A DNA stretch of 64,000 nt from NCBI GenBank assembly GCA_964353135.1, contig CAYGTV010000004.1, forward strand, positions 3,963 to 67,962. The letters run 5' to 3'. Made by a program: the position numbers and the translations under genes. This stretch comes from an uncultured Candidatus Saccharibacteria bacterium. GTDB taxonomy: Bacteria; Patescibacteriota; Minisyncoccia; Phycocordibacterales; UBA918. Under the pieces are notes generated by a model, which did not search any database, was not told the origin of the DNA, and saw only the letters and a program-made list of their open reading frames with translations. Every line of letters begins with the position of its first letter. The stretch's first letter is position 1. Below, piece by piece: positions 5,777-28,665 of this stretch.

Positions 5777-6661
5777 ATGCGACCAGAGACCAAGCAACTC
5801 CTGAAAAACATCCTGATTGGATTTGGGGTGTTTCTGTTAATTGGTTTAATTCTATACGGTGTCTGGCACGGGACTCGGGTGCAGGCTCTTACTATTAATG
5901 AGGTCGTTGTCACAGGTGGCGAGACGATCTCGCACCAGGTAGTTGCGAATGATGTTTCGCAGCTGCTCGAGGGTGAGTATGCACGGTTTATTCCGCGTCG
6001 GTTTGCTTGGACGTATCCTGAAAAGGAAATCATGAACAAGCTACAAGAAGTGGATCGGGTGAAAGACCCGGTGCTGGAGCGAGATGGCAAACAGTTGTTG
6101 GTCAGCTTGGCAGAATATGAGCCAGTAGCGCTGTGGTGTGACAGTTCTGCGTCAGAACGATGTGTATTTTTAGATACTGATGGCTATGGCTTCGCAGAAG
6201 CACCCAGCCTGATGGGTGGTGCGTTTGTGCGCTATGTCCAAATCGGCCAGTCAGCTAGAACAAATGAACCCTTCACAGTTACAGCGGATTTTCTCTTGCT
6301 GCGTGAATTAACTTCACTCCTGAAAGAATATGGCTGGCCGGTTGTGACGGTTGAATTTGATCAGGCTCGTGACGCGTTTGTATATTTGTCCGGTGGTGGA
6401 GAGCTAAAAATTACATTGCTCCAGACCCCAATAGAAACGATCGACAACCTGCAGACAATTTTGTCGACCGAACAATATAAACACTTGCAACCAGGTAATT
6501 TTGCCTACATTGATTTACGATTTGGCAACAAAGTGTTTGTAAATGAATTTGGAGTTATTGTTGATGAGGCACTAGAAACAGAAACCGCCACATCAAGTGA
6601 TGAGGTGCTTGAAACGTCAAACGCCGCACCATCTGGTGATGGCGCGGCGGCAGTAAACTAA
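5777..6661 (+). CDS. ftsQ: cell division protein FtsQ/DivIB-like (POTRA domain)
   Basis: N-terminal TM helix (ILIGFGVFLLIGLILYGVW) followed by a POTRA-like region (LTINEVVVTGGETISHQVV). Size and architecture match FtsQ. A TGCTACAAT box lies 6 nt upstream of the ATG. Confidence 0.6.
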   Translation: MRPETKQLLKNILIGFGVFLLIGLILYGVWHGTRVQALTINEVVVTGGETISHQVVANDVSQLLEGEYARFIPRRFAWTYPEKEIMNKLQEVDRVKDPVLERDGKQLLVSLAEYEPVALWCDSSASERCVFLDTDGYGFAEAPSLMGGAFVRYVQIGQSARTNEPFTVTADFLLLRELTSLLKEYGWPVVTVEFDQARDAFVYLSGGGELKITLLQTPIETIDNLQTILSTEQYKHLQPGNFAYIDLRFGNKVFVNEFGVIVDEALETETATSSDEVLETSNAAPSGDGAAAVN

Positions 6662-7092
6662 TGATCATGGACCCATGTTTGGTCGACTAGGCGGCCTGGC
6701 AGCATATGAGTCTCGATGCCTTCGAGACAAACTGCTAAAGGTAGCATCTTTTGGGGTGCATGCTCTTTGATTAGCATGTACACCCGTACACACAAGGCAT
6801 CGTGTGCGACTTCTTTGTCAAAAAGTAAACTGCCGGCAGCTGCAGCAGCTTTCTTTTTCTTGAAGCCGCAAACTTTCTTTAGGGTAGTCTCGCACACATG
6901 ACGAGCTTCTTCTTGTGTGTATGTCGCTGTGTCATCATGCTCGCGAAAAAAGTATTCGTTTGCAGGTTTGGTTCGAGAAAGTATGAGGAGACAATGATCA
7001 CCTTGATTAGTTCCTTCAACAGAGGGCCTTTCATCTGAGTTTCTGGCGCCGAGTTTGAGCATTGCCCACTCTTTATGAACTTCTTCTGGCAT
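6658..7092 (-). CDS. hypothetical protein with weak YbaK/ProX-deacylase-like segment
   Basis: 144 aa. The segment FFREHDD...EEARHVCETTLKKVCGF...KSLLFDKE loosely parallels the YbaK stretch HTYEHDP...GDEVVKKLGL...YKTLLV. The C-terminal GGxSP region is missing, so the call is tentative. Confidence 0.3.
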   Translation of the reverse strand: MPEEVHKEWAMLKLGARNSDERPSVEGTNQGDHCLLILSRTKPANEYFFREHDDTATYTQEEARHVCETTLKKVCGFKKKKAAAAAGSLLFDKEVAHDALCVRVYMLIKEHAPQKMLPLAVCLEGIETHMLPGRLVDQTWVHDH

Positions 7093-16501: not shown

Positions 16502-17254
16502 ATGAACGAACATCCACAACAACCAATGATTGTCGTTGCGACACAACCACTCTGGAAAGACTTACTCGTACCAGCCTCAATCGTGATTGCTGGAATTGCG
16601 ATCGGGCTAGGTTTGTTTATGAGTGGTGGCACAGCTACGCCGGCTCAAATCGCCGGACAACCAGCGCCAGCAGCTGAGCAAGAAGTAGATCGAACTGACC
16701 AAGTTGCTGAAGTAACAGAGGCAGATCACCGCAAGGGGCCAGTTGACGCACCAATTACCATTGTTGAATACTCTGACTTTGATTGTCCGTTTTGTAGTCG
16801 ATTCCATGACTCTATGAATGCACTGGTTGCAGCAAACGATGATGTGGCCTGGGTGTACCGACACTTCCCGCTAGAACAGCTTCATCCACAGGCAGAGGGA
16901 GTAGCCCTAGCGTCAGAGTGTGTGGCAGATATTGCCGGTCAATCAGCCTTTTGGAGCTTTACAGACGGCTACTTTGCCGCTCGGGGAGCACGAGATGCAA
17001 CGCCACACGATGTACTGGTGCCACGTTTAGCAAACGCAGCTGGGGTAACTACCGCCAGTCTGCAAGAATGCCTTACTAGTGGTCGAATGCAGGCCAATGT
17101 TCAGGCTGATATCGACAATGCTATTGCTACGGGTGGACGAGGTACGCCATGGAGTATCTTGATTGGACCAACCGGTAAAACCTACCCAATCAATGGAGCA
17201 CTTCCAGAGGCAGCGATTCAGCAAGTCATTCAACTAGCACGAGACGAAGCATAG
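16502..17254 (+). CDS. DsbA-family thiol:disulfide oxidoreductase
   Basis: N-terminal TM helix and a thioredoxin CPFC active site (VEYSDFDCPFCSRFH). Confidence 0.8.
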   Translation: MNEHPQQPMIVVATQPLWKDLLVPASIVIAGIAIGLGLFMSGGTATPAQIAGQPAPAAEQEVDRTDQVAEVTEADHRKGPVDAPITIVEYSDFDCPFCSRFHDSMNALVAANDDVAWVYRHFPLEQLHPQAEGVALASECVADIAGQSAFWSFTDGYFAARGARDATPHDVLVPRLANAAGVTTASLQECLTSGRMQANVQADIDNAIATGGRGTPWSILIGPTGKTYPINGALPEAAIQQVIQLARDEA

Positions 17255-20143: not shown

Positions 20144-20701
20144 TTATTCAAGTATTTTATTGAATATTTCTAAAAATAGCTCATCTCCTTGTTGTTGGTT
20201 GCGGTGGTGCTCTGGGTGAAATTGTAGTCCGTATATTGGCTTCTGCCTGTGTTTAAAAGCCGCAATTGCATGGTCAGAGTACGCTAAAGCAATTAGGTCT
20301 GTTCCTAAATTGCTTACTCCGACTCCATGATTTTCATATACGTCGATTGTCTTACCATTAAAAACTGGCGAGTTTTCTGTGAAATTAATTTTAATGGTCC
20401 CAGTGTGCTGCTTATCGAGATTGAAAAGTTCAGAATTAAATGCATGAGCAATGAGTTCATGACCTAGGCAGATACCAATCATTGGCTTTGTTGTCCTTCT
20501 GATCAGCTGTAATTCAGCTACAAATAACTCATCGTTACCGATGACTGGGTATTTACTGCTGCCAGACAAAACAAGGCAACCATAATCATCTGTATTTTGT
20601 TGATGTATCTCACTAAAATTGATCAACTCGACATCTCCGGGAATTAGGTCTTTTAGTTTTTTTGTCAGGGTTGACCCGTTGTCGATTAGTAAAGTTTTCA
20701 T
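20144..20701 (-). CDS. class I glutamine amidotransferase domain protein (standalone)
   Basis: Catalytic triad context (GICLGHE and LQFHPE). 185 aa, AT-rich. Confidence 0.75.
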   Translation of the reverse strand: MKTLLIDNGSTLTKKLKDLIPGDVELINFSEIHQQNTDDYGCLVLSGSSKYPVIGNDELFVAELQLIRRTTKPMIGICLGHELIAHAFNSELFNLDKQHTGTIKINFTENSPVFNGKTIDVYENHGVGVSNLGTDLIALAYSDHAIAAFKHRQKPIYGLQFHPEHHRNQQQGDELFLEIFNKILE

Positions 20702-20702
20702 A

Positions 20703-23381
20703 CTAATACTTCACCAAAAATACGTTAGCAAAAGCTTTGAGGATTTCTACGATGATTACTTGTAATACAAGCCAACCTGCTACGAACAGTAGCCAGTTGG
20801 TTGGTAGGGAGACGATGTCAAATTGAGTCTGGAAAAATGGTAAGTACAGGGTAAGAATCATAAGGGATGATCCGACAACAAATCCGATGTTGAGGAGTTT
20901 GTTTTGCAAGAAGTTGTAGCGCCAGATTGGGCGGGATAGATCAAGGAACGAGTACGCAATCAGTAGGGTGTAGAAACCAAATGAAGTAAATAGCACAGTG
21001 CGGGCGATTTGTTCGCTGACTCCTTGTCCGAGCATGACAAGGTAGAGCGCTAGAAGAAGTCCTGAAATCACAGTTCCAACCCCAATGGTAAGGAACATAA
21101 CGCGTGGGTCAAACAGCGTTTTTCCGGTCGCGTCAGTCTCACGCATCAGTTGGCGATCAAAGGCAAAGGCGATGGCTGGGATACTGCCGGTAAAGAGGTT
21201 GACCCAGATGATCTGTACAGCGGTCAGTGGAAGTGCGACTCCGGCTATGATGGCCCCACCGACGAGCACTAGCTCATCCAGAGCGTTACTCATTAGGTAC
21301 ACAAATACTTTTTTGATGTTAGATAACACTTGTTTGCCTTCTTCGATGGTGGCCACGATTGTGCCAAAATTGTCGTCGAGTAGTACGAGGTCAGCGACAC
21401 TTTTAGCCACATCAGTCCCACTACCAACGGCGATACCAATGTTAGCTGCTTTGAGTGACGGGGCGTCGTTGACGCCGTCACCAGTCATCGCGACGATCTC
21501 GCCTCGCTTTTGATGCAACTTCACAATCCGTAGTTTATCTTTGGGAGTAACGCGGGCAAATATATGGATTGTATCTAGTAGTTCAGTTAGTTCTTCGTCT
21601 GTCATCAGGGCGACCTGGGTACCGGTCAATACATTTTGCTCAGTCACATCAAGTCCGGCTTGTTTAGCGATCGCCAATGCTGTTCCTGGTAAATCGCCCG
21701 TGGCCATAATTACTCTGGTACCAAATTCACCAATTTTCTCTAGTGCAGCTGGGACTTCGGGTCGAATTGGATCGTAAAAACTAAGGATGCCTAGGAACGT
21801 AATGTTCCGCACATCATCAATAGTGATTCCATCATCGCCAGTGCGCGGAGTCAGTAGAGCGATCCCAAGGATTCTTCGCCCCGCGTCACTGTGAGCATGC
21901 ACAGACTGGAGCAAGCGTTCTTTTTCTGGTTCAGATAGTGTCGCTCTCTTGATGAGTACGTCTGGGGCACCGAGAACCACGTGCGGGTCATCAAACTGGC
22001 TGAGGTGTGCTGGTAGGTACCGACTAGGAATCCTGGTGACCGAGAACTTGTATTTAGAAGAAAAAGGAATCCGGATGGCGATCGTGCTACGATCAGATGC
22101 AGTTTGAACGATACCTAGTTTCGCTGCTGCTTTGACAATGTTACCCTCGAGGTCATCCCCACCAATATGCCAATCCTGAGGCGAATCTTCTGGGTTATCA
22201 ATCAGCACATCACATGAACAACGGGCTAGTTGTAGGTAGGCCTTTTGCTCATCATTGTATGGTTCGGTTTGTACCTGGGGGGCGAAATTATCGGCCAGTA
22301 GCTGGGTTGTGCTATCGATGTCTTTGAGCTGCATGTCAGCCTGCGTCAGGGTGCCAGTTTTGTCAGTGATGATAAGGGTGGTTGACCCCAGGGTTTCAGA
22401 TGCTGTTAGGTTGCGGATGATTCCGTTACGCTTGGCGATACGCTCTACTCCAATGGCGAGGATAGCGGTTAGTCCAATCGGGAGAGCCTCTGGTACGGAT
22501 CCAACCAGTACAGCGATCGATAGTAGTAGCATTTCATGGAAATCTTGCCCACTGTTAATTCCGATGAAAAACACGGCGGTAACTAGGATGGACGTCACAA
22601 TAATAATTATCCAGGTTAGTTTACCGAGCGCTTTTTGGAGGGGTGTTTGCTCTGACTCAGTAGCTTGGACCAGTTGTGATAGTTTTCCAATTTCAGTGTT
22701 GCTTCCGGTAGCGGTCACCAGTGCATAGCCTGATCCGCCAAGCGCCAGTGTGCCTGCATACACCATATTAGTTCGATCAGCGAGTGCTGCTTCAATTGTC
22801 AGTCGTCCTGGATCTTTTTCTACTGGAAGTGATTCCCCCGTGAGAATGGCCTCGTCAACGGTAAAGTTTAGTTCACGAATGATCCGAGCATCGGCGGTGA
22901 TTCTACTACCATCGGTTATATGGATCAGATCACCTGGGACCAGCTGTGTCGCGTCAATTTCGATTTCTTGGCCATTTCTGATAACCCGGGTGCGTTCGGT
23001 TATATATGATCGGAGGTTGGCAATAGCTTTCTCTGCCTTGTACTCTTGGATAAAACCGAGCACAGCGTTGACGATGACGGCAAAACTAATGATGGATGCA
23101 TCGAGCCATTCCTGCAAACTAGCTGTCAAAACAATTGCCGCGCATAAAATGAGGATAAGTGGACTGATGAACTGGTGGATTAAAATAGTCGCAATTGATT
23201 TGCCTTCAGCTTCAGCAAATTCATTTGTACCGGCAAGTTTGCGCACAGTGGCCGCGGTCGTATTGGTCAATCCCTTGTCTGAAGAGGTTTTTAATTCAGT
23301 TGCTAAGGCATCAATATCCTTTGTCCACGGGATAGAAACCATCGGGTATTTGTCCATATAATATGATTGTAGCAACATCAC
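20703..23381 (-). CDS. P-type cation-transporting ATPase (type II, Ca2+/Mg2+-like)
   Basis: DKTGTLT phosphorylation motif (ITDKTGTLTQ), MTGDGVNDAPSLKAANIGIAVG and TGES. 892 aa with 10 predicted TM segments. Confidence 0.9.
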   Translation of the reverse strand: MMLLQSYYMDKYPMVSIPWTKDIDALATELKTSSDKGLTNTTAATVRKLAGTNEFAEAEGKSIATILIHQFISPLILILCAAIVLTASLQEWLDASIISFAVIVNAVLGFIQEYKAEKAIANLRSYITERTRVIRNGQEIEIDATQLVPGDLIHITDGSRITADARIIRELNFTVDEAILTGESLPVEKDPGRLTIEAALADRTNMVYAGTLALGGSGYALVTATGSNTEIGKLSQLVQATESEQTPLQKALGKLTWIIIIVTSILVTAVFFIGINSGQDFHEMLLLSIAVLVGSVPEALPIGLTAILAIGVERIAKRNGIIRNLTASETLGSTTLIITDKTGTLTQADMQLKDIDSTTQLLADNFAPQVQTEPYNDEQKAYLQLARCSCDVLIDNPEDSPQDWHIGGDDLEGNIVKAAAKLGIVQTASDRSTIAIRIPFSSKYKFSVTRIPSRYLPAHLSQFDDPHVVLGAPDVLIKRATLSEPEKERLLQSVHAHSDAGRRILGIALLTPRTGDDGITIDDVRNITFLGILSFYDPIRPEVPAALEKIGEFGTRVIMATGDLPGTALAIAKQAGLDVTEQNVLTGTQVALMTDEELTELLDTIHIFARVTPKDKLRIVKLHQKRGEIVAMTGDGVNDAPSLKAANIGIAVGSGTDVAKSVADLVLLDDNFGTIVATIEEGKQVLSNIKKVFVYLMSNALDELVLVGGAIIAGVALPLTAVQIIWVNLFTGSIPAIAFAFDRQLMRETDATGKTLFDPRVMFLTIGVGTVISGLLLALYLVMLGQGVSEQIARTVLFTSFGFYTLLIAYSFLDLSRPIWRYNFLQNKLLNIGFVVGSSLMILTLYLPFFQTQFDIVSLPTNWLLFVAGWLVLQVIIVEILKAFANVFLVKY

Positions 23382-23426
23382 TGCAGTATCGCGTCGGTTT
23401 TATACCTATGATACAATCGAGAACAT

Positions 23427-24122
23427 ATGAAAAATTCATGGCTTATTTTCGGAGGAATTATTGTTTTGCTATTTGTTGGTGCATTTTATATCGCCAGTAC
23501 AGCCGGTGAAGCGAACAATGAAGGGATTGAAGAGATGACACACATCAAAGGTAACCCTGACGCCGAGGTGGTGCTGGTTGAATACAGCGATTTCCAGTGT
23601 CCAGCGTGTCAGGCAATGTACCCGGTGGTGGCAGGTTTACTTGCAGAATATGGTGATCAATTACGATTTGAATACCGACATTTTCCAATTGAACGAATTC
23701 ATCCATACGCAGTCCAGGCAGCAGTAGCAGCTGAAGCAGCGGGTCAGCAAGGTAAGTTTTACGAATTCCATGATGCGCTATTTGATAACCAGCAAACCTG
23801 GGGGCAGAGTCCAGCACCAACTGCATTCTTTCAACAATATGCACAAGAGCTTGAGCTAGACATGGACACATTCCGTCGGCATTCAAATGCGAGTGTTTTA
23901 CGTGACAAGGTTCGTGGACAGCAGCAGCAGGGGTTGGCAGAGGGTGTGACTGGAACTCCAACCATGTTCCTTAATGGTGAACGAATGGTATACGCCACTT
24001 ATGATGAGTTCATCGCTCAAGTGGCAGCTGCAATCGATCCAAGTCTAGCTCCACAACCAGAATCTGAAGATCCAACCGTGGTAGGAGAAACAGCTGGCGA
24101 GCCTGTTCGGTTTGGGATTTAA
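23427..24122 (+). CDS. DsbA-family thiol:disulfide oxidoreductase (second paralog)
   Basis: N-terminal TM helix and a VEYSDFQCPACQ active site. Confidence 0.8.
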   Translation: MKNSWLIFGGIIVLLFVGAFYIASTAGEANNEGIEEMTHIKGNPDAEVVLVEYSDFQCPACQAMYPVVAGLLAEYGDQLRFEYRHFPIERIHPYAVQAAVAAEAAGQQGKFYEFHDALFDNQQTWGQSPAPTAFFQQYAQELELDMDTFRRHSNASVLRDKVRGQQQQGLAEGVTGTPTMFLNGERMVYATYDEFIAQVAAAIDPSLAPQPESEDPTVVGETAGEPVRFGI

Positions 24123-24128
24123 TTACCT

Positions 24129-25382
24129 ATGAAGAATGTCAATGTTGTTTCCGTCACAGGAACAAAAGGGAAAACAACAGTGGTAAATGTACTAGCTGAC
24201 CTTTTAAAAGCGCTTACTAACAAGAAGACTTTGCATGTTACGACCGTAGGTCATTTTGTAGATGGTGAGCAGCAATCAAGTGCGGCAGATTCTTATGCTA
24301 CATGGGGATTGGTGCCAACTGTGTGTCCAGGTAGATATTTGCACGAGTTTTATGGTGCAAAAGAGCCAGGTTTGGCAGTTCTAGAAGCCGCCTTAGGTAG
24401 TAGTGGTTTGCCTGGTTTAGGTTATCAGCGGCATAACATCGGCGTCTTTTTAAACGTATTTTCAGACCACATTAGTGCAACTGGACGGATTAAGACTCAG
24501 GCAGATATTGTTTTGGCTAAAAAATTTGTTTTTACTCATATACGGCCTGGTGGGTGGGCTGTTATAAATGGTGATGATGAACTTGTAATGCAGGCTCGCA
24601 CCTACATTAAAAAGGATGTTCAGCAGATTGTGTTTGGCATTGATTACGATACGAGTGATATCACAGTACCGGTGGTGACGGTGAAACACAATACGGTCGT
24701 GTATGTCCAGATTGGTGGTGATGAGGTTGAAGTTGTTGACCTCGGCGATGTGGTGTGGACTTTTGGTGGCCGGTACCAACCGTCGGTGTATAACTTGTTA
24801 GCTGTGGTGGCATCTATAGTTGCCTATCATGATGGTGTGGTCCCGGATGAACTAGGGCGTCTACTTAGCCAGACACGGCTGGATCCATATGGCGGACGTT
24901 TAACTTTAATGAAAAATAACCAGGGAGTACACGTGATAGCAGATTATGCTCATGAAGAAAAATCTTTAAATGCAGTTGCAGAATTAGCACGACACTACAC
25001 GGCTGGTGACGGAAAAGTCATTGGGGTGTTGCGGCTTGCGTACGATAGAACTGAAAAACATATCCAGGAAACCGCGACTAGTATTGCAGATTCATACGAT
25101 ACTTTCGTTATTTACGACAAGATCGACGGCTATTACCGACAGCCAAATAAAAAGCTGCTTAGTAAAAAGTTTACCCAAGAAGTAGGAAAGATAGCCACTA
25201 GCTTTAGTGATGCTCTGCGATTGTCTGGTAGAAAAGTGGAGTGTATCTATAGAGAGGACCAGGCAATTGCAAGAGCTGCCGAAATAGCTCAGCCAGGTGA
25301 TGTAGTGGTTCACATTGTGAACGACGACATAGAAAGATCTATTAATTGGATCAAAGATTCATTTCAAGCTGACTTTATTTAA
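24129..25382 (+). CDS. Mur-ligase-family protein (central/C-terminal domains only; CphA M-domain/PgsB-like)
   Basis: P-loop VTGTKGKTTV and NVFSDHI (Mur ligase DxH-like). No MurC-F N-terminal domain. 417 aa. Confidence 0.7.
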   Translation: MKNVNVVSVTGTKGKTTVVNVLADLLKALTNKKTLHVTTVGHFVDGEQQSSAADSYATWGLVPTVCPGRYLHEFYGAKEPGLAVLEAALGSSGLPGLGYQRHNIGVFLNVFSDHISATGRIKTQADIVLAKKFVFTHIRPGGWAVINGDDELVMQARTYIKKDVQQIVFGIDYDTSDITVPVVTVKHNTVVYVQIGGDEVEVVDLGDVVWTFGGRYQPSVYNLLAVVASIVAYHDGVVPDELGRLLSQTRLDPYGGRLTLMKNNQGVHVIADYAHEEKSLNAVAELARHYTAGDGKVIGVLRLAYDRTEKHIQETATSIADSYDTFVIYDKIDGYYRQPNKKLLSKKFTQEVGKIATSFSDALRLSGRKVECIYREDQAIARAAEIAQPGDVVVHIVNDDIERSINWIKDSFQADFI

Positions 25383-26328
25383 AGTAGCTGTTTATAATCT
25401 CTTCACCAATCTTCGTTACGATATCTGCTCTTTTATACTTTTCTTTGATGTACATATAGCCAGGATTAGCATTGATTTCTATTATTTTGTACGACCGAAG
25501 GTCACTAAACGCTCCCTCAATAAATACATCAATACCAACTGCTCCAGTGTTGAGTTTCTTGGCTAACGTCAGCGCCCACTTCCTGACACCAGACGGGATA
25601 TTTGTATGATCCGCAACGAAATCATGTGAACCCTTTCTGGTGATGTGGTAGGGTATCTTGAATCCCTTGGTAAGGATAGATTTATTGTTTAGCTTGTGTT
25701 GGTGTAGGTTTTGTGTAAAAAACGCAAGATCTTTATCTTTAGAAATTTGTTTAAATAACTGTTCTGCTGTACTTTGCCCGTCGCCGACAATTGAAGGGAA
25801 CTCCTTTGAGTGCATAAACATAACTTTGTTATTGATCACAAGAATCCTATATTCTATCTGCATCACAATCTCTTGCAGCATAAAGTTGACTTTGGTTGAG
25901 TGTAGTTTACGCACGATTCGCTGTAGCTGCTTATCGTTGGTTATTACCTCGATTCCTTTTCCCTTTAGGCCTGATTCTGGCTTTATGAGGCAGGGATAGT
26001 GGATATTTTTTACCAATGTGTGGCTGACATCGTCAGCACTAGGGTAGTTTAGTGTGGTTATATCAATACTACGGATAGTGTTGTAACCTAGCTGCTGCAA
26101 AATATAATTTGATTGAATTTTGCTGTGGGTTAATACGGCAAACCATCTTGTTGTGTCAGGGTAGAAGCCAATGTTGTTTCCGTTTAATAAACAAAACTTT
26201 TTACCGGCAGTAATTTTCAGCATTTTCTTTTCTGCTCCACCAAGTAATAGCTCAGTTGAAAATCCACTGCGCAAAGCCGCCTGTTTAATTGGGTGTAAAT
26301 GTGATTTTGAACTAATTGTATATTTCAT
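25375..26328 (-). CDS. ATP-grasp ligase (RimK-like)
   Basis: ATP-grasp signature near the C-terminus (KIIEINANPGYMYI) and glycine-rich GLKGKGIEV. It is convergent with the Mur-ligase gene and overlaps it by 8 bp. Confidence 0.7.
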   Translation of the reverse strand: MKYTISSKSHLHPIKQAALRSGFSTELLLGGAEKKMLKITAGKKFCLLNGNNIGFYPDTTRWFAVLTHSKIQSNYILQQLGYNTIRSIDITTLNYPSADDVSHTLVKNIHYPCLIKPESGLKGKGIEVITNDKQLQRIVRKLHSTKVNFMLQEIVMQIEYRILVINNKVMFMHSKEFPSIVGDGQSTAEQLFKQISKDKDLAFFTQNLHQHKLNNKSILTKGFKIPYHITRKGSHDFVADHTNIPSGVRKWALTLAKKLNTGAVGIDVFIEGAFSDLRSYKIIEINANPGYMYIKEKYKRADIVTKIGEEIINSYFK

Positions 26329-26491
26329 AGTAAGAAAAGTTTATAACAGAAATGACGGGTTTCTTGTCAAGTGTTGTATTTTATAAGTTGTGTTGTTAAG
26401 TGTTGATTTGGGTTGGTTTTAGGGTATGCTTTCATGTTGCACGAAGGCAAATGAGGCGTTGACTGCATGAGAATGGCATTTATTTTTAAGA

Positions 26492-27853
26492 TTGTCTATG
26501 ACACTAAGTAAAGAAAAAAAGAAGAATATTCTGTTGTATGTAATGGCGCTACCAGCCGGCACCATTGAGGCGGTCAAAGAATATGAAAGAATATTTGATG
26601 AGCCTATCCGGGTCATGCTATTGCGTGACTCGCGGGTTCGCGATCTTAAAAACAGTCTTTCTAGAAAAGGGCTAGATTTTGCACTGACGTGTGATTTTTC
26701 TAAACCTGAGAAAATTGCAGAAACACTCTTGCCGTATCAAGACCAACTACTAGCTGTGAGTTGTCGGCAGGAGCAAGCATTGGCACGATTTGCTCAAGTG
26801 ATACCCCATGTACCGTACTTACGGACTCCGAGTACCGAGTCCTTACGTTGGGCGAGTGACAAGTATGAAATGCGTCGTCGCTTTAGTGTGATTGATAAAA
26901 CTCTTAATCCAAAATTCACTAGGATTAAAAATAATTCACATATAGAGCGCGAACGTGTCATCAAAAAGGTTGGGTTCCCAATGATCGTAAAGCCTGCCAG
27001 TATGGTTGCGAGTCTATATGTGACGATTTGCTACCACGAGGACGAACTAGAAAAAGCCGTGCGGACAATCTCAAGGCGTTTGAATGCCGCTTATAAAAGA
27101 GACAATCGTCTGGAGGTTCCAAAGATTATTGCCGAAGAGCATATGGAAGGACACCAGTACTCAATTGATTCGTACGTAAACTCGCGCGGAGGTATCACTC
27201 ATTGTCCACTAGTAAGGCAGAAAACAGCTAGGGAAATTGGGCATGATGATTTCTATACCTACCTACAAACCACCCCTACTGCACTAAAGAAGAATACTGT
27301 TCAGGCTGCAGAAACTGCCGCACAAAACGCTATCCATGCTCTAGGTTTGCGTAGTACTATCACCCACACAGAATTAATGAAAATTGACGACGAGTGGAAG
27401 GTGATTGAAATCGGAGCTCGAATGGGAGGATTTCGGCATGTGCTGCATAAACTAAGCTGCGACATAAATCACTCGCTGAATGACATTTTGGTCAGGGTCC
27501 CAAAAAAACCTATTGTTCCCAAAAAATGTAAAGGTTTTGCTTGTGCCATGAAGTGGTTTGCTGAAAAAGAAGGTCAGATAATTGAGATGAAGGGAATTAA
27601 AAAGATCGAGGAGCTGGAATCGTTCAATAGCATTACCCTTAATAAAAAGCTTGGCGACAAAGCTATATTTGCCCGTAACGGGGGACGCTCAGTGTTTAAT
27701 TTGTTCATGTATAATTCTGATCGGTCAAAACTACTGGCAGATATTCGTCGGGTTGAGCAACTGGTAGAAGTAAAAGTTGCTACGCGCGGAACAGCTAAAA
27801 AGTCCGTCGTTGCTAAAAAAATAACCAAGAAAGTGACAAAAGCGAAGAAATAA
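26492..27853 (+). CDS. ATP-grasp domain protein with basic C-terminal tail
   Basis: PMIVKPASMVAS, EEHMEGHQYSIDSY and VIEIGARMGG ATP-grasp motifs. The Lys-rich tail is TRGTAKKSVVAKKITKKVTKAKK. Confidence 0.7.
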   Translation: MSMTLSKEKKKNILLYVMALPAGTIEAVKEYERIFDEPIRVMLLRDSRVRDLKNSLSRKGLDFALTCDFSKPEKIAETLLPYQDQLLAVSCRQEQALARFAQVIPHVPYLRTPSTESLRWASDKYEMRRRFSVIDKTLNPKFTRIKNNSHIERERVIKKVGFPMIVKPASMVASLYVTICYHEDELEKAVRTISRRLNAAYKRDNRLEVPKIIAEEHMEGHQYSIDSYVNSRGGITHCPLVRQKTAREIGHDDFYTYLQTTPTALKKNTVQAAETAAQNAIHALGLRSTITHTELMKIDDEWKVIEIGARMGGFRHVLHKLSCDINHSLNDILVRVPKKPIVPKKCKGFACAMKWFAEKEGQIIEMKGIKKIEELESFNSITLNKKLGDKAIFARNGGRSVFNLFMYNSDRSKLLADIRRVEQLVEVKVATRGTAKKSVVAKKITKKVTKAKK

Positions 27854-27915
27854 CGGTGTAGCAAAGTGGGGAGGCCGGCCGGGTAAAACTGGTCGGCCTT
27901 TGGTATGATAGAGCT

Positions 27916-28665
27916 ATGTTTCGTACTCGTGATTTTATTTTGTTGTTTTCGGCAATCATGTTCTTGGTGATGGCGATTGGTACGACCCTAATTAATCAAA
28001 AATGGTCATCGGATGATACAGCCTTTGTGCTTGTTGAGACCGAGAATAGTACAGAATATATAGCGATGGTTGCCTCAAGCGAAGAAATCAATAGAGCGGA
28101 AAAAGTTGCGCAAATGCGCTCAAAAATATCTCAACAGACGTTGCTAACAAATGAGGTTGCACAAGAGGCTGTCGAAGATGTGATTGATGATGATGCTCCG
28201 ACGTCCAGTCCGGAAGTCACGACTGAATCAGCAGCTGTTTTGTGTCCTTCGTATCGACCATATACTAGTTTTTGGGATGCGAGGGACCTAACCTTAATGG
28301 AAAGTGAGGGTGCCCGCATCTTGTCTCGGGGCGAAATTAGTCCTACGTCTATTCCTGAACTAGTCCTACAATTACCGGTACGGACTGTACCAAGCGGTAA
28401 TCCGAGCTGTTTATCGTCTGATGTGATTGGAATTGCTAACGATGGCTCATTGATCCGTAACGATGAAGTGGCGCTATATGGTATCTTTTCGGCCGATGCT
28501 CTCATCGGCTATGCACTTGATGGATTCCCAATCTATGGTAGCGGCAATGGTGCTGGTGACGCTTGTGGTGGGGTGACCACTCCATCCGGTTACCGATACG
28601 AGCTGTCGTCTGAGCGAGACACCATGATCAACTGCTTTGCCGCTGCCCCGGTCTTACTTCCTTAA
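27916..28665 (+). CDS. hypothetical membrane-anchored protein
   Basis: N-terminal TM helix (FILLFSAIMFLVMAIGTTLI) and a Cys-containing extracytoplasmic domain. Confidence 0.5.
   Translation: MFRTRDFILLFSAIMFLVMAIGTTLINQKWSSDDTAFVLVETENSTEYIAMVASSEEINRAEKVAQMRSKISQQTLLTNEVAQEAVEDVIDDDAPTSSPEVTTESAAVLCPSYRPYTSFWDARDLTLMESEGARILSRGEISPTSIPELVLQLPVRTVPSGNPSCLSSDVIGIANDGSLIRNDEVALYGIFSADALIGYALDGFPIYGSGNGAGDACGGVTTPSGYRYELSSERDTMINCFAAAPVLLP

Follow-up and report, generated by a model that had tools for sequence, protein, structure and literature searches.

The stretch analysed here (hereafter the window) comprises 64,000 nucleotides of contig CAYGTV010000004.1, from an uncultured Candidatus Saccharibacteria bacterium, and carries three adjacent genes for predicted ATP-dependent ligases, here named A, B and C (Table 1). 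The open reading frames that an earlier note on this DNA had delineated were all recovered at the same positions together with the motifs it had listed, namely VTGTKGKTT (the P-loop) and NVFSDH in A, KIIEINANPGY in B, and VIEIGARMGG and the Lys-rich C-terminal tail (KKSVVAKKITKKVTKAKK) in C. The short convergent overlap of A and B was likewise confirmed base by base, with C placed divergently from B.

Table 1. Coordinates of the ligase genes and nearby features in the window
Feature	Position	Strand	Remarks
Gene A, Mur-type (CphA-M-like) ligase	24129..25382	+	417 aa; central and C-terminal domains only
Gene B, standalone ATP-grasp ligase, CphA-G/GshF group (predicted)	25375..26328	-	317 aa; without Asp-recognition elements
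Gene C, L-amino-acid-ligase-type ATP-grasp (predicted)	26492..27853	+	453 aa; variable Lys-rich C-terminal tail
Convergent 3' ends of A and B, 8-bp overlap including both stop codons	25375..25382	.	Open reading frame coordinates and base-by-base reading
Divergent B-C intergenic region, 163 bp	26329..26491	.	GC 0.35
DsbA-like gene, upstream edge of variable slot, not a ligase	23427..24122	+	Pfam Thioredoxin_4, DSBA
Glutamine amidotransferase (GATase), class I	20144..20701	-	PF00117, 80.5 bits; not adjacent to A-B-C

Sequence, fold and catalytic residues of the three ligases

Congruent with the earlier description, A consists of the central and C-terminal Mur ligase domains alone, as both Mur_ligase_M (PF08245, 62.6 bits) and Mur_ligase_C (PF02875, 52.7 bits) exceed their Pfam cutoffs. 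The N-terminal domain of MurC to MurF, which binds the UDP-N-acetylmuramic acid (UDP-MurNAc) substrate, is truly absent, since the P-loop strand of A starts as early as residue 4 and a gap of only 6 bp separates the ATG from the end of the DsbA-like gene upstream, leaving no room for it; residues 2-6 align to MurE positions ~101-117, depending on the model used. The best NCBIfam match of A is positions 478-860 (of 862) of cyanophycin synthetase (CphA, TIGR02068) at 152 bits, followed by MurE at 87 bits, against cutoffs of 850 and, for the best MurE model, 373 bits. A phmmer search of PDB sequences returned residues 488-874 of TeCphA1 first (76 bits, E 2e-20) and MurE-like chains at 34 bits with E 1e-7 or worse. 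Similarly, an AlphaFold (AF2) model built from 120 homologs, with a mean predicted local distance difference test (pLDDT) score of 95.8, retrieved the M domains of CphA1 at the top of a Foldseek search (query TM-score, TMq, 0.79; E ~4e-27) and MurE next (TMq ~0.7). Thus, by hidden Markov model, PDB sequence and fold searches alike, the closest known relative of A is the CphA M domain, ahead of MurE. When A, CphA-M and MurE were placed in a neighbour-joining tree, CphA-M likewise came out as sister to A with MurE apart, a weak indication given a bootstrap of 83/200.

We then mapped onto A the positions shown by Miyakawa et al. (PMC9427784) and by Sharon et al. (PMC9262961) to be required for catalysis by the CphA M domain. 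All are conserved (K499→K15, T500→T16, T522→T39, E558→E86, D585/H586→D113/H114, N696→N222, R731→R257 and H748→H275), and these ATP-binding, Mg-binding and catalytic positions are mostly invariant across the A family; with all of them kept, A is predicted to be an active Mur-type ligase. Where MurE has DNPR and CphA an acidic stretch, the A family has a motif of its own, YDKIDG[YV]xR, so the amine substrate of A is not readable from its sequence.

Other assignments of A were considered and set aside. A bona fide MurE is contradicted by the score shortfall, the missing DNPR and the missing N-domain, and FolC/FPGS by 25.4 bits to TIGR01499 against a cutoff of 162.65. The likeness to PgsB/CapB that the earlier note had proposed did not hold up, as no such model is found among the 22 NCBIfam and 2 Pfam matches and there are no pgsC or pgsA neighbours. 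MurT/GatD is rejected because Mur_ligase_C is present and DUF1727 gives no match; a GatD partner is rejected as well, the sole GATase being of class I, GuaA-like, 3.4 kb off and absent from syntenic relatives. The earlier statement that this is not a MurT/GatD pair is therefore upheld, and the family models equally speak against A being a housekeeping FolC, MurT or CapB, the alternative against which that note had wished A to be checked. Homologs of A amount to hundreds of standalone proteins of ~420 aa with 45-56% identity, in Parcubacteria, Saccharibacteria and other Patescibacteria. Two loci from metagenome-assembled genomes (MAGs) labelled Gammaproteobacteria (L013:7860-10432 and L014:7860-10426) carry tandem A paralogs of ~424 and ~423 aa that share roughly 33-38% identity with A of the window and lie directly after polA, without an ATP-grasp neighbour; these may represent a two-step variant that uses Mur-type ligases only.

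The Pfam RimK match of B is confined to residues 238-309 (33 bits), without Rimk_N. Its best NCBIfam match is positions 240-448 of cyanophycin synthetase, the G domain (64.6 bits against a cutoff of 850), which ranks before GshAB, RimK and Ddl (TIGR00768 39.5 bits against 143.4). CphA1 and CphA2 are its best PDB matches, and in a fold search with a predicted model of moderate confidence (pLDDT 79.6) the ATP-grasp module of GshF and the G domains of CphA1 and CphA2 outrank RimK and Ddl. We accordingly rejected B as a bona fide RimK, the match being partial, without Rimk_N and under the TIGR00768 cutoff, and as a Ddl, which ranks below CphA in the family search and below CphA and GshF in the fold search.

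The B family was aligned with a standalone G-like protein from a Saccharibacterium (L016) and with two genuine CphA1 proteins, both encoded in plasmid-borne operons of cphA, isoaspartyl peptidase and cyanophycinase. The ATP and Mg ligands of B are kept (K116, R161, D267, E284 and N286). However, the catalytic P-loop His267 of CphA is replaced by K122, with Lys or Asp across the B family, the G-omega insert of ~16 residues (PRRGxGH..TRI) is deleted, the Asp-binding loop NLSxGG, which holds Asn394 and Ser396, is replaced by RKGS, and Arg458 by Met. The 337-aa L016 protein, serving as a control, keeps all four features. Mutagenesis of TeCphA1 has shown His267, Asn394/Ser396 of the G-omega loop and Arg458 to be required for Asp addition (PMC9427784). 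With these elements lost, B is best assigned to the CphA-G/GshF group of ATP-grasp ligases and is predicted not to be an Asp-adding G domain. The earlier idea of dispersed cyanophycin-synthetase-like parts is thus supported in that A is nearest to CphA-M and B matches the CphA G domain best, and fails in that B lacks the elements for adding Asp.

Close homologs of B are few (n=4 in a word-seeded search), and an exhaustive profile search recovered ~50 cluster representatives at E<1e-30, all of ~320 aa. More distant matches to the B profile contain two to three tandem ATP-grasp domains, some with an acylphosphatase domain, and none has a Mur-ligase domain. Five of these (P0279, P0301, P0303, P0315 and P0377; 750-1170 aa) combine two or three RimK-like ATP-grasp domains in tandem with a C-terminal acylphosphatase, an architecture that suggests iterative ligation with proofreading of acyl phosphates.

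C matches ATP-grasp_4 (PF13535, 70.5 bits), and its best PDB match is the L-amino acid ligase (Lal) BL00235 (E 8e-11), with BacD also retrieved, the latter at 57 bits when the profile of the C family was used. It is hence classed, by similarity, as an ATP-grasp enzyme of the Lal type. This architecture is shared with BacD/YwfE, BL00235 and RizA/RizB; known Lals, however, are sporadic enzymes of secondary metabolism, whereas C has more than 1,000 matches and its homologs across Paceibacteria, Kaiserbacteria and Nomurabacteria share 65-81% identity, a very strong conservation unlike that of A and B, and C additionally has many invariant Cys and His residues and a basic tail. The tail is common in the family and variable in length. 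The database gene call for C starts at M18 and yields 436 aa; since KNIIxYV, which precedes M18, is conserved among homologs, the longer start (TTG 26492 or ATG 26498) is the more likely one. The invariant Cys/His positions of the C family are unusually many (C67, C91, C180, H182, H237, C238, H292, H319, C323, H327 and C346), and may form a metal or redox site.

The variable slot and the linkage of A to amide-bond enzymes

Comparison with syntenic loci from related genomes shows the trio to be part of a block of fixed order in the lineage of the window: methyltransferase, P-type ATPase, DsbA, a slot, C, a YHYH-like gene, a PolB-exonuclease-like gene, GH1, EamA and a GH42-like gene. The slot between DsbA and C is its one variable part, and the order DsbA-slot-C is kept in L083, L085, L088-L091, L094, L097, L101, L104 and L106. 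C is present in every syntenic locus. The slot is empty in L090, L091 and L097; it holds A only in L083/84, L089 and L092, B only in L088 and L107, and both B and A in the window and in L085/86. Elsewhere it accommodates a 411-aa paralog of C together with B (L081, L093, L104 and L115), RimK-like ligases (L082, L094, L101, L106 and L119), a peptidase of the MATCAP/DUF1704 family (L098), or genes of ~250 aa without detectable homology (L096, L111 and L113). L088, with a C that is 81% identical, is the closest relative of the window. C is thus the constant, conserved core gene and A and B are optional; the earlier note had regarded C as an extra ATP-grasp enzyme, and the roles are instead reversed, with C the constant partner. 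Nearly all identifiable genes inserted beside C make or cut amide bonds. The ~250-aa genes (L096:6137-6883(-), L111:5416-6153(-) and 6150-6947(-) in tandem, L113:848-1609(-)) match nothing in Pfam, NCBIfam or the PDB; they may be a further component of the system that has so far gone unrecognised.

The earlier note had called for a search for co-occurrence in other genomes, and the trio indeed reappears there, with its gene order rearranged and in different contexts. Arrows giving strand, the order is A> <B C> in the window, <B A> C> in L085/86 and C> A> <B in L019, and A directly before C (A>C) is also found in the unrelated context of L001. The last two arrangements indicate that the linkage extends beyond inherited synteny. 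Of 28 loci with an A ortholog, 21 have an ATP-grasp gene no more than two genes away from it. The count rises to 23 with L002, whose contig breaks off directly after a RimB-like gene, and L016, whose ATP-grasp genes fall barely outside the two-gene limit. Overlapping gene pairs on the same strand in L011, L012 and L017 suggest that the products are translated together.

Saccharibacteria show a recurrent string in which a gene of the c15 family is followed by A, a RimB-like gene, RimK and DUF192, with RimB-RimK fusions at some loci. RimB, a retropepsin-like endopeptidase, shortens the poly-glutamate tails that RimK makes and also stimulates poly-α-glutamate synthesis by RimK (PMC11957791). The c15 proteins, of 354-381 aa, are encoded directly upstream of A (L087:6844-7989, L008:6916-7980, L017:3986-5056); an ATP-grasp identity noted by eye (KPxxG..G, EE, ExN) was not confirmed by Pfam, NCBIfam or PDB searches, and hhalign against the B family gave a non-significant probability of 4%. 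A MATCAP-like protein encoded 9 bp upstream of A in L016 is homologous to the slot protein of L098 (BLASTP 2e-5), and both contain an HExxxH motif followed by an EG motif.

It could be argued that A, B and C are unrelated neighbours, each with its own substrate, brought together only because a hot spot next to C tolerates insertions. Congruent with this, C occurs without A or B in L090, L091 and L097, A and B occur independently of one another, the two are convergent and hence not co-transcribed, only B and the GATase deviate in composition, suggesting separate insertions, and a promoter and terminator scan performed no better than on shuffled sequence. Yet the occupants of the slot are mostly amide-bond enzymes from at least five families (Mur-type, three kinds of ATP-grasp and a MATCAP-like peptidase), which makes a neutral hot spot hard to defend, and the adjacency of A to C or to other ATP-grasp genes recurs in unrelated contexts and phyla, often as overlapping genes on the same strand. 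We therefore consider mere neighbourhood unlikely.

Comparison with known systems and possible products

CphA1 (e.g. PDB 7LG5 and 7WAC) joins an ATP-grasp G domain and a Mur-type M domain in a single N-G-M polypeptide; here the counterparts are separate genes on opposite strands. A matches the M domain in fold and in ATP-binding and catalytic residues, whereas B, with the G domain among its best matches, has lost the Asp-adding elements. A genuine split cyanophycin synthetase, in which B would extend a poly-Asp backbone and A would add Arg to its side chains in trans to yield a storage polymer, would account for the best database matches of A and B being the M and G domains of CphA1 and for the label 'cyanophycin synthetase' that pipelines of the Joint Genome Institute (JGI) attach to A homologs. 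MAG papers, relying on genome annotation alone, also report cyanophycin synthetase or synthesis in the candidate phyla radiation (CPR), the domains of CphA1 are able to complement one another in trans (PMC9262961), and in L016 a standalone G domain with all CphA signatures lies ~2 kb from the A ortholog. On the other hand, B is without His267, the G-omega insert, the Asn394/Ser396 loop and Arg458 that TeCphA1 needs (PMC9427784), the scores of A and B (152 and 65 bits) fall far from the cutoff of 850, and YDKIDGYxR stands in A where CphA has its acidic patch. No CphA N-domain homolog, cyanophycinase or isoaspartyl peptidase was detected in the window or in the more than 80 related loci; for the two latter enzymes, whose genes flank cphA in the two plasmid-borne operons, phmmer searches used the enzymes of those operons. 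Moreover, G and M always occur together in CphA1, while close relatives of the window carry A without B (L083, L089 and L092) or B without A (L088, L107, L081 and L093); being separately dispensable, they are incompatible with an obligate, alternating G/M polymerase. The constant partner differs as well, being the Lal-type C. A split synthetase is, in our view, very unlikely at this locus.

The L016 string itself (L016:6586-13686, Saccharibacteria MAG JAUMYN010000001.1) comprises the MATCAP-like gene (466 aa), A, a 164-aa gene on the minus strand, a 335-aa ATP-grasp gene, the 337-aa G-like gene, a RimB-like gene and RimK. The 337-aa protein displays all signatures of the CphA G domain (KPxxANHGRG, the PRRGEGH insert, NLSRGG and APGIRMH), making L016, as judged from these motifs, a stronger candidate than the window for a cyanophycin synthetase that is genuinely split.

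Two further systems pair a ligase with a peptidase. The RimK-RimB system, which adds and trims poly-α-glutamate tails on ribosomal protein S6, is mirrored in the A, RimB-like and RimK string of Saccharibacteria, and RimK-like genes share the slot of A beside C in Paceibacteria. The window, however, contains no RimK or RimB gene, the RimK match of B being partial and without Rimk_N, and we know of no Mur-type ligase in the described Rim systems. The eukaryotic cycle of tubulin tyrosination and detyrosination by tubulin tyrosine ligase (TTL) and MATCAP combines an ATP-grasp ligase with an HExxxH metallocarboxypeptidase of the MATCAP/DUF1704 family; as an analogy only, MATCAP-like peptidases stand beside A in L016 and beside C in L098, and are absent from the window.

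Taking the observed enzyme classes, intact catalytic residues, gene linkage and slot variability together, we tentatively favour, at somewhat below an even chance, a modular cassette in which A, B and C are separate ATP-dependent carboxylate-amine ligases working towards one peptide product. C, as the core Lal-type enzyme, would make the primary α-peptide bond or bonds. A would then phosphorylate a carboxylate of the product of C to an acyl phosphate and attach an amino acid; by analogy with CphA-M, and with the nucleotide-binding domain missing, this carboxylate would most likely be a side-chain or terminal one. B, with its remodelled substrate loop, would add a further residue. A and B would thus act as optional, lineage-variable tailoring modules, to which related genomes would add trimming peptidases of the RimB-like and MATCAP-like kinds. 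Because A and B are optional and vary with lineage, one would expect a short peptide or poly-amino-acid as product, possibly with branches, which could be free or sit on a protein C-terminus in the manner of RimK/RimB or TTL/MATCAP, and which is probably not canonical Asp/Arg cyanophycin.

Several points weigh against such a cassette. C stands alone in L090, L091 and L097, which implies a function of C independent of A and B, and the convergent arrangement of A and B precludes their co-transcription here. Synteny in small CPR genomes can outlast any functional coupling. Some slot occupants, those of ~250 aa, have no recognisable function, and the grouping of A with CphA-M has weak bootstrap support (83/200). 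The shared substrate, the order of steps, the branching and the identity of the product are the parts of the scheme that we infer. Finally, the contexts of A are heterogeneous, with a penicillin-binding protein (PBP) gene in L012, a like gene in L018, and glycosyltransferases and a deacetylase in L015 and L020, and a cell-envelope substrate fits these contexts equally well.

In such envelope tailoring A, with or without B and C, would add amino acids to peptidoglycan stems or cross-bridges or to carboxylates of other envelope glycopolymers, and the variable set of ligases would translate into a lineage-variable wall chemistry. Wall decorations typically vary at strain level, congruent with the variability seen here. 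A belongs to the MurE/CphA-M group, sharing with the Mur ligases the central ATPase and C-terminal domains, P-loop, DH motif and acyl-phosphate mechanism. ATP-grasp ligases are known to make the D-amino-acid cross-bridges of Gram-positive walls (PMC2922099). The window itself encodes YceG/MltG, a diacylglycerol kinase (DAGK)-type kinase and an M23/peptidoglycan-binding peptidase, and at other loci A is followed by a class A PBP (L012), precedes by two genes a large gene of the same cluster (L018), or is surrounded by a polysaccharide deacetylase and glycosyltransferases (L015 and L020). However, A lacks both the N-domain that binds UDP-MurNAc in MurC to MurF and the DNPR motif, it lies outside a mur/dcw cluster with no mur, fem or ddl genes adjacent, and the adjacency of PBP and glycosyltransferase genes is limited to two plus two loci. 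The commonest partners are instead RimK and RimB, a cytoplasmic system acting on proteins and peptides, next to MATCAP-like carboxypeptidases. We accordingly hold an envelope role to be quite improbable. The chief hint of a cell-wall connection is the PBP neighbourhood: in L012 (9260-11815) a class A PBP, with transglycosylase and transpeptidase domains by Pfam, is encoded immediately downstream of A, and in L018 an 885-aa gene belonging to the same cluster is found two genes downstream of A, with an ATP-grasp gene in between.

Returning to the modular cassette, a bolder form of it would see in A and its partners an unrecognised CPR family of trans-acting CphA-like systems, in which A would link amino acids by isopeptide bonds to the side-chain carboxylates of an α-linked backbone made by C, B or RimK. 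We regard this as doubtful. If true, it would entail a branched poly-amino-acid of a new kind or, on a protein such as ribosomal protein S6, branched tails, and the trans-acting pair of A and an ATP-grasp enzyme might then represent the unfused ancestral state of cyanophycin synthetase. Decoration by A in trans of a backbone made by an ATP-grasp ligase would offer a new route to branched poly-amino-acids, with bearing on the origin of CphA by fusion, on biopolymer engineering and on the physiology of Patescibacteria, where a multi-ligase system would present chemistry that is easily testable.

Annotation, composition and surroundings of the locus

The A family amounts to a widespread group of uncharacterised Mur-type ligases without a nucleotide-sugar handle, paired with ATP-grasp ligases and tail-trimming peptidases. 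Full-text literature searches found no paper on CphA-M-like ligases as a standalone family or on their pairing with ATP-grasp enzymes, and nothing relevant on split CphA, CphA3 or a Mur ligase with RimK; matches to 'CphA3' concern an unrelated Aeromonas beta-lactamase. The 'cyanophycin synthetase' label of the JGI pipelines is found on many of the hundreds of CPR homologs of ~420 aa. MAG studies infer nitrogen storage in CPR bacteria from cyanophycin-synthetase annotations, which is overreach if these rest on A-like proteins, as such proteins constitute only half of the enzyme and the partner in the window lacks the Asp-adding machinery.

The earlier note had further described the whole block as AT-rich and hence suggestive of acquisition. 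This holds for B (GC 0.382), whereas A (0.432) and C (0.427) are only slightly below the whole window (0.457) with unremarkable third-position GC (GC3); B and the GATase (0.38) are the only compositional outliers. With GC3 normal, acquisition of A and C cannot be read from base composition, and gene gain and loss is better supported by presence and absence in syntenic relatives. The B-C intergenic region presumably holds the promoters of both genes; a promoter and terminator scan of 23300-28000 yielded nothing beyond shuffled sequence, and promoter-like hexamers occur in the intergenic region on both strands at a frequency not above that of shuffled sequence.

The rest of the window shows no sign of a mobile element and encodes ordinary CPR housekeeping functions (DprA, SerRS, Dus, DnaX, RsgA, RNase J, GroEL and BipA). 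The GATase is GuaA-N-like at 91 bits, which is under the cutoff, and has a second match, at 32.8 bits, to Peptidase_C26, the family of gamma-glutamyl hydrolases; a role as hydrolase of gamma-glutamyl or isopeptide bonds is conceivable from these matches. Its site between the methyltransferase and the ATPase is without a GATase in all syntenic relatives examined, identifying it as a lineage-specific insertion. Lastly, the window contains two DsbA-like thioredoxin-fold paralogs with N-terminal membrane anchors, 6 kb apart (16502-17254 and 23427-24122), the second of which, in related genomes, always delimits the variable ligase slot on its upstream side.

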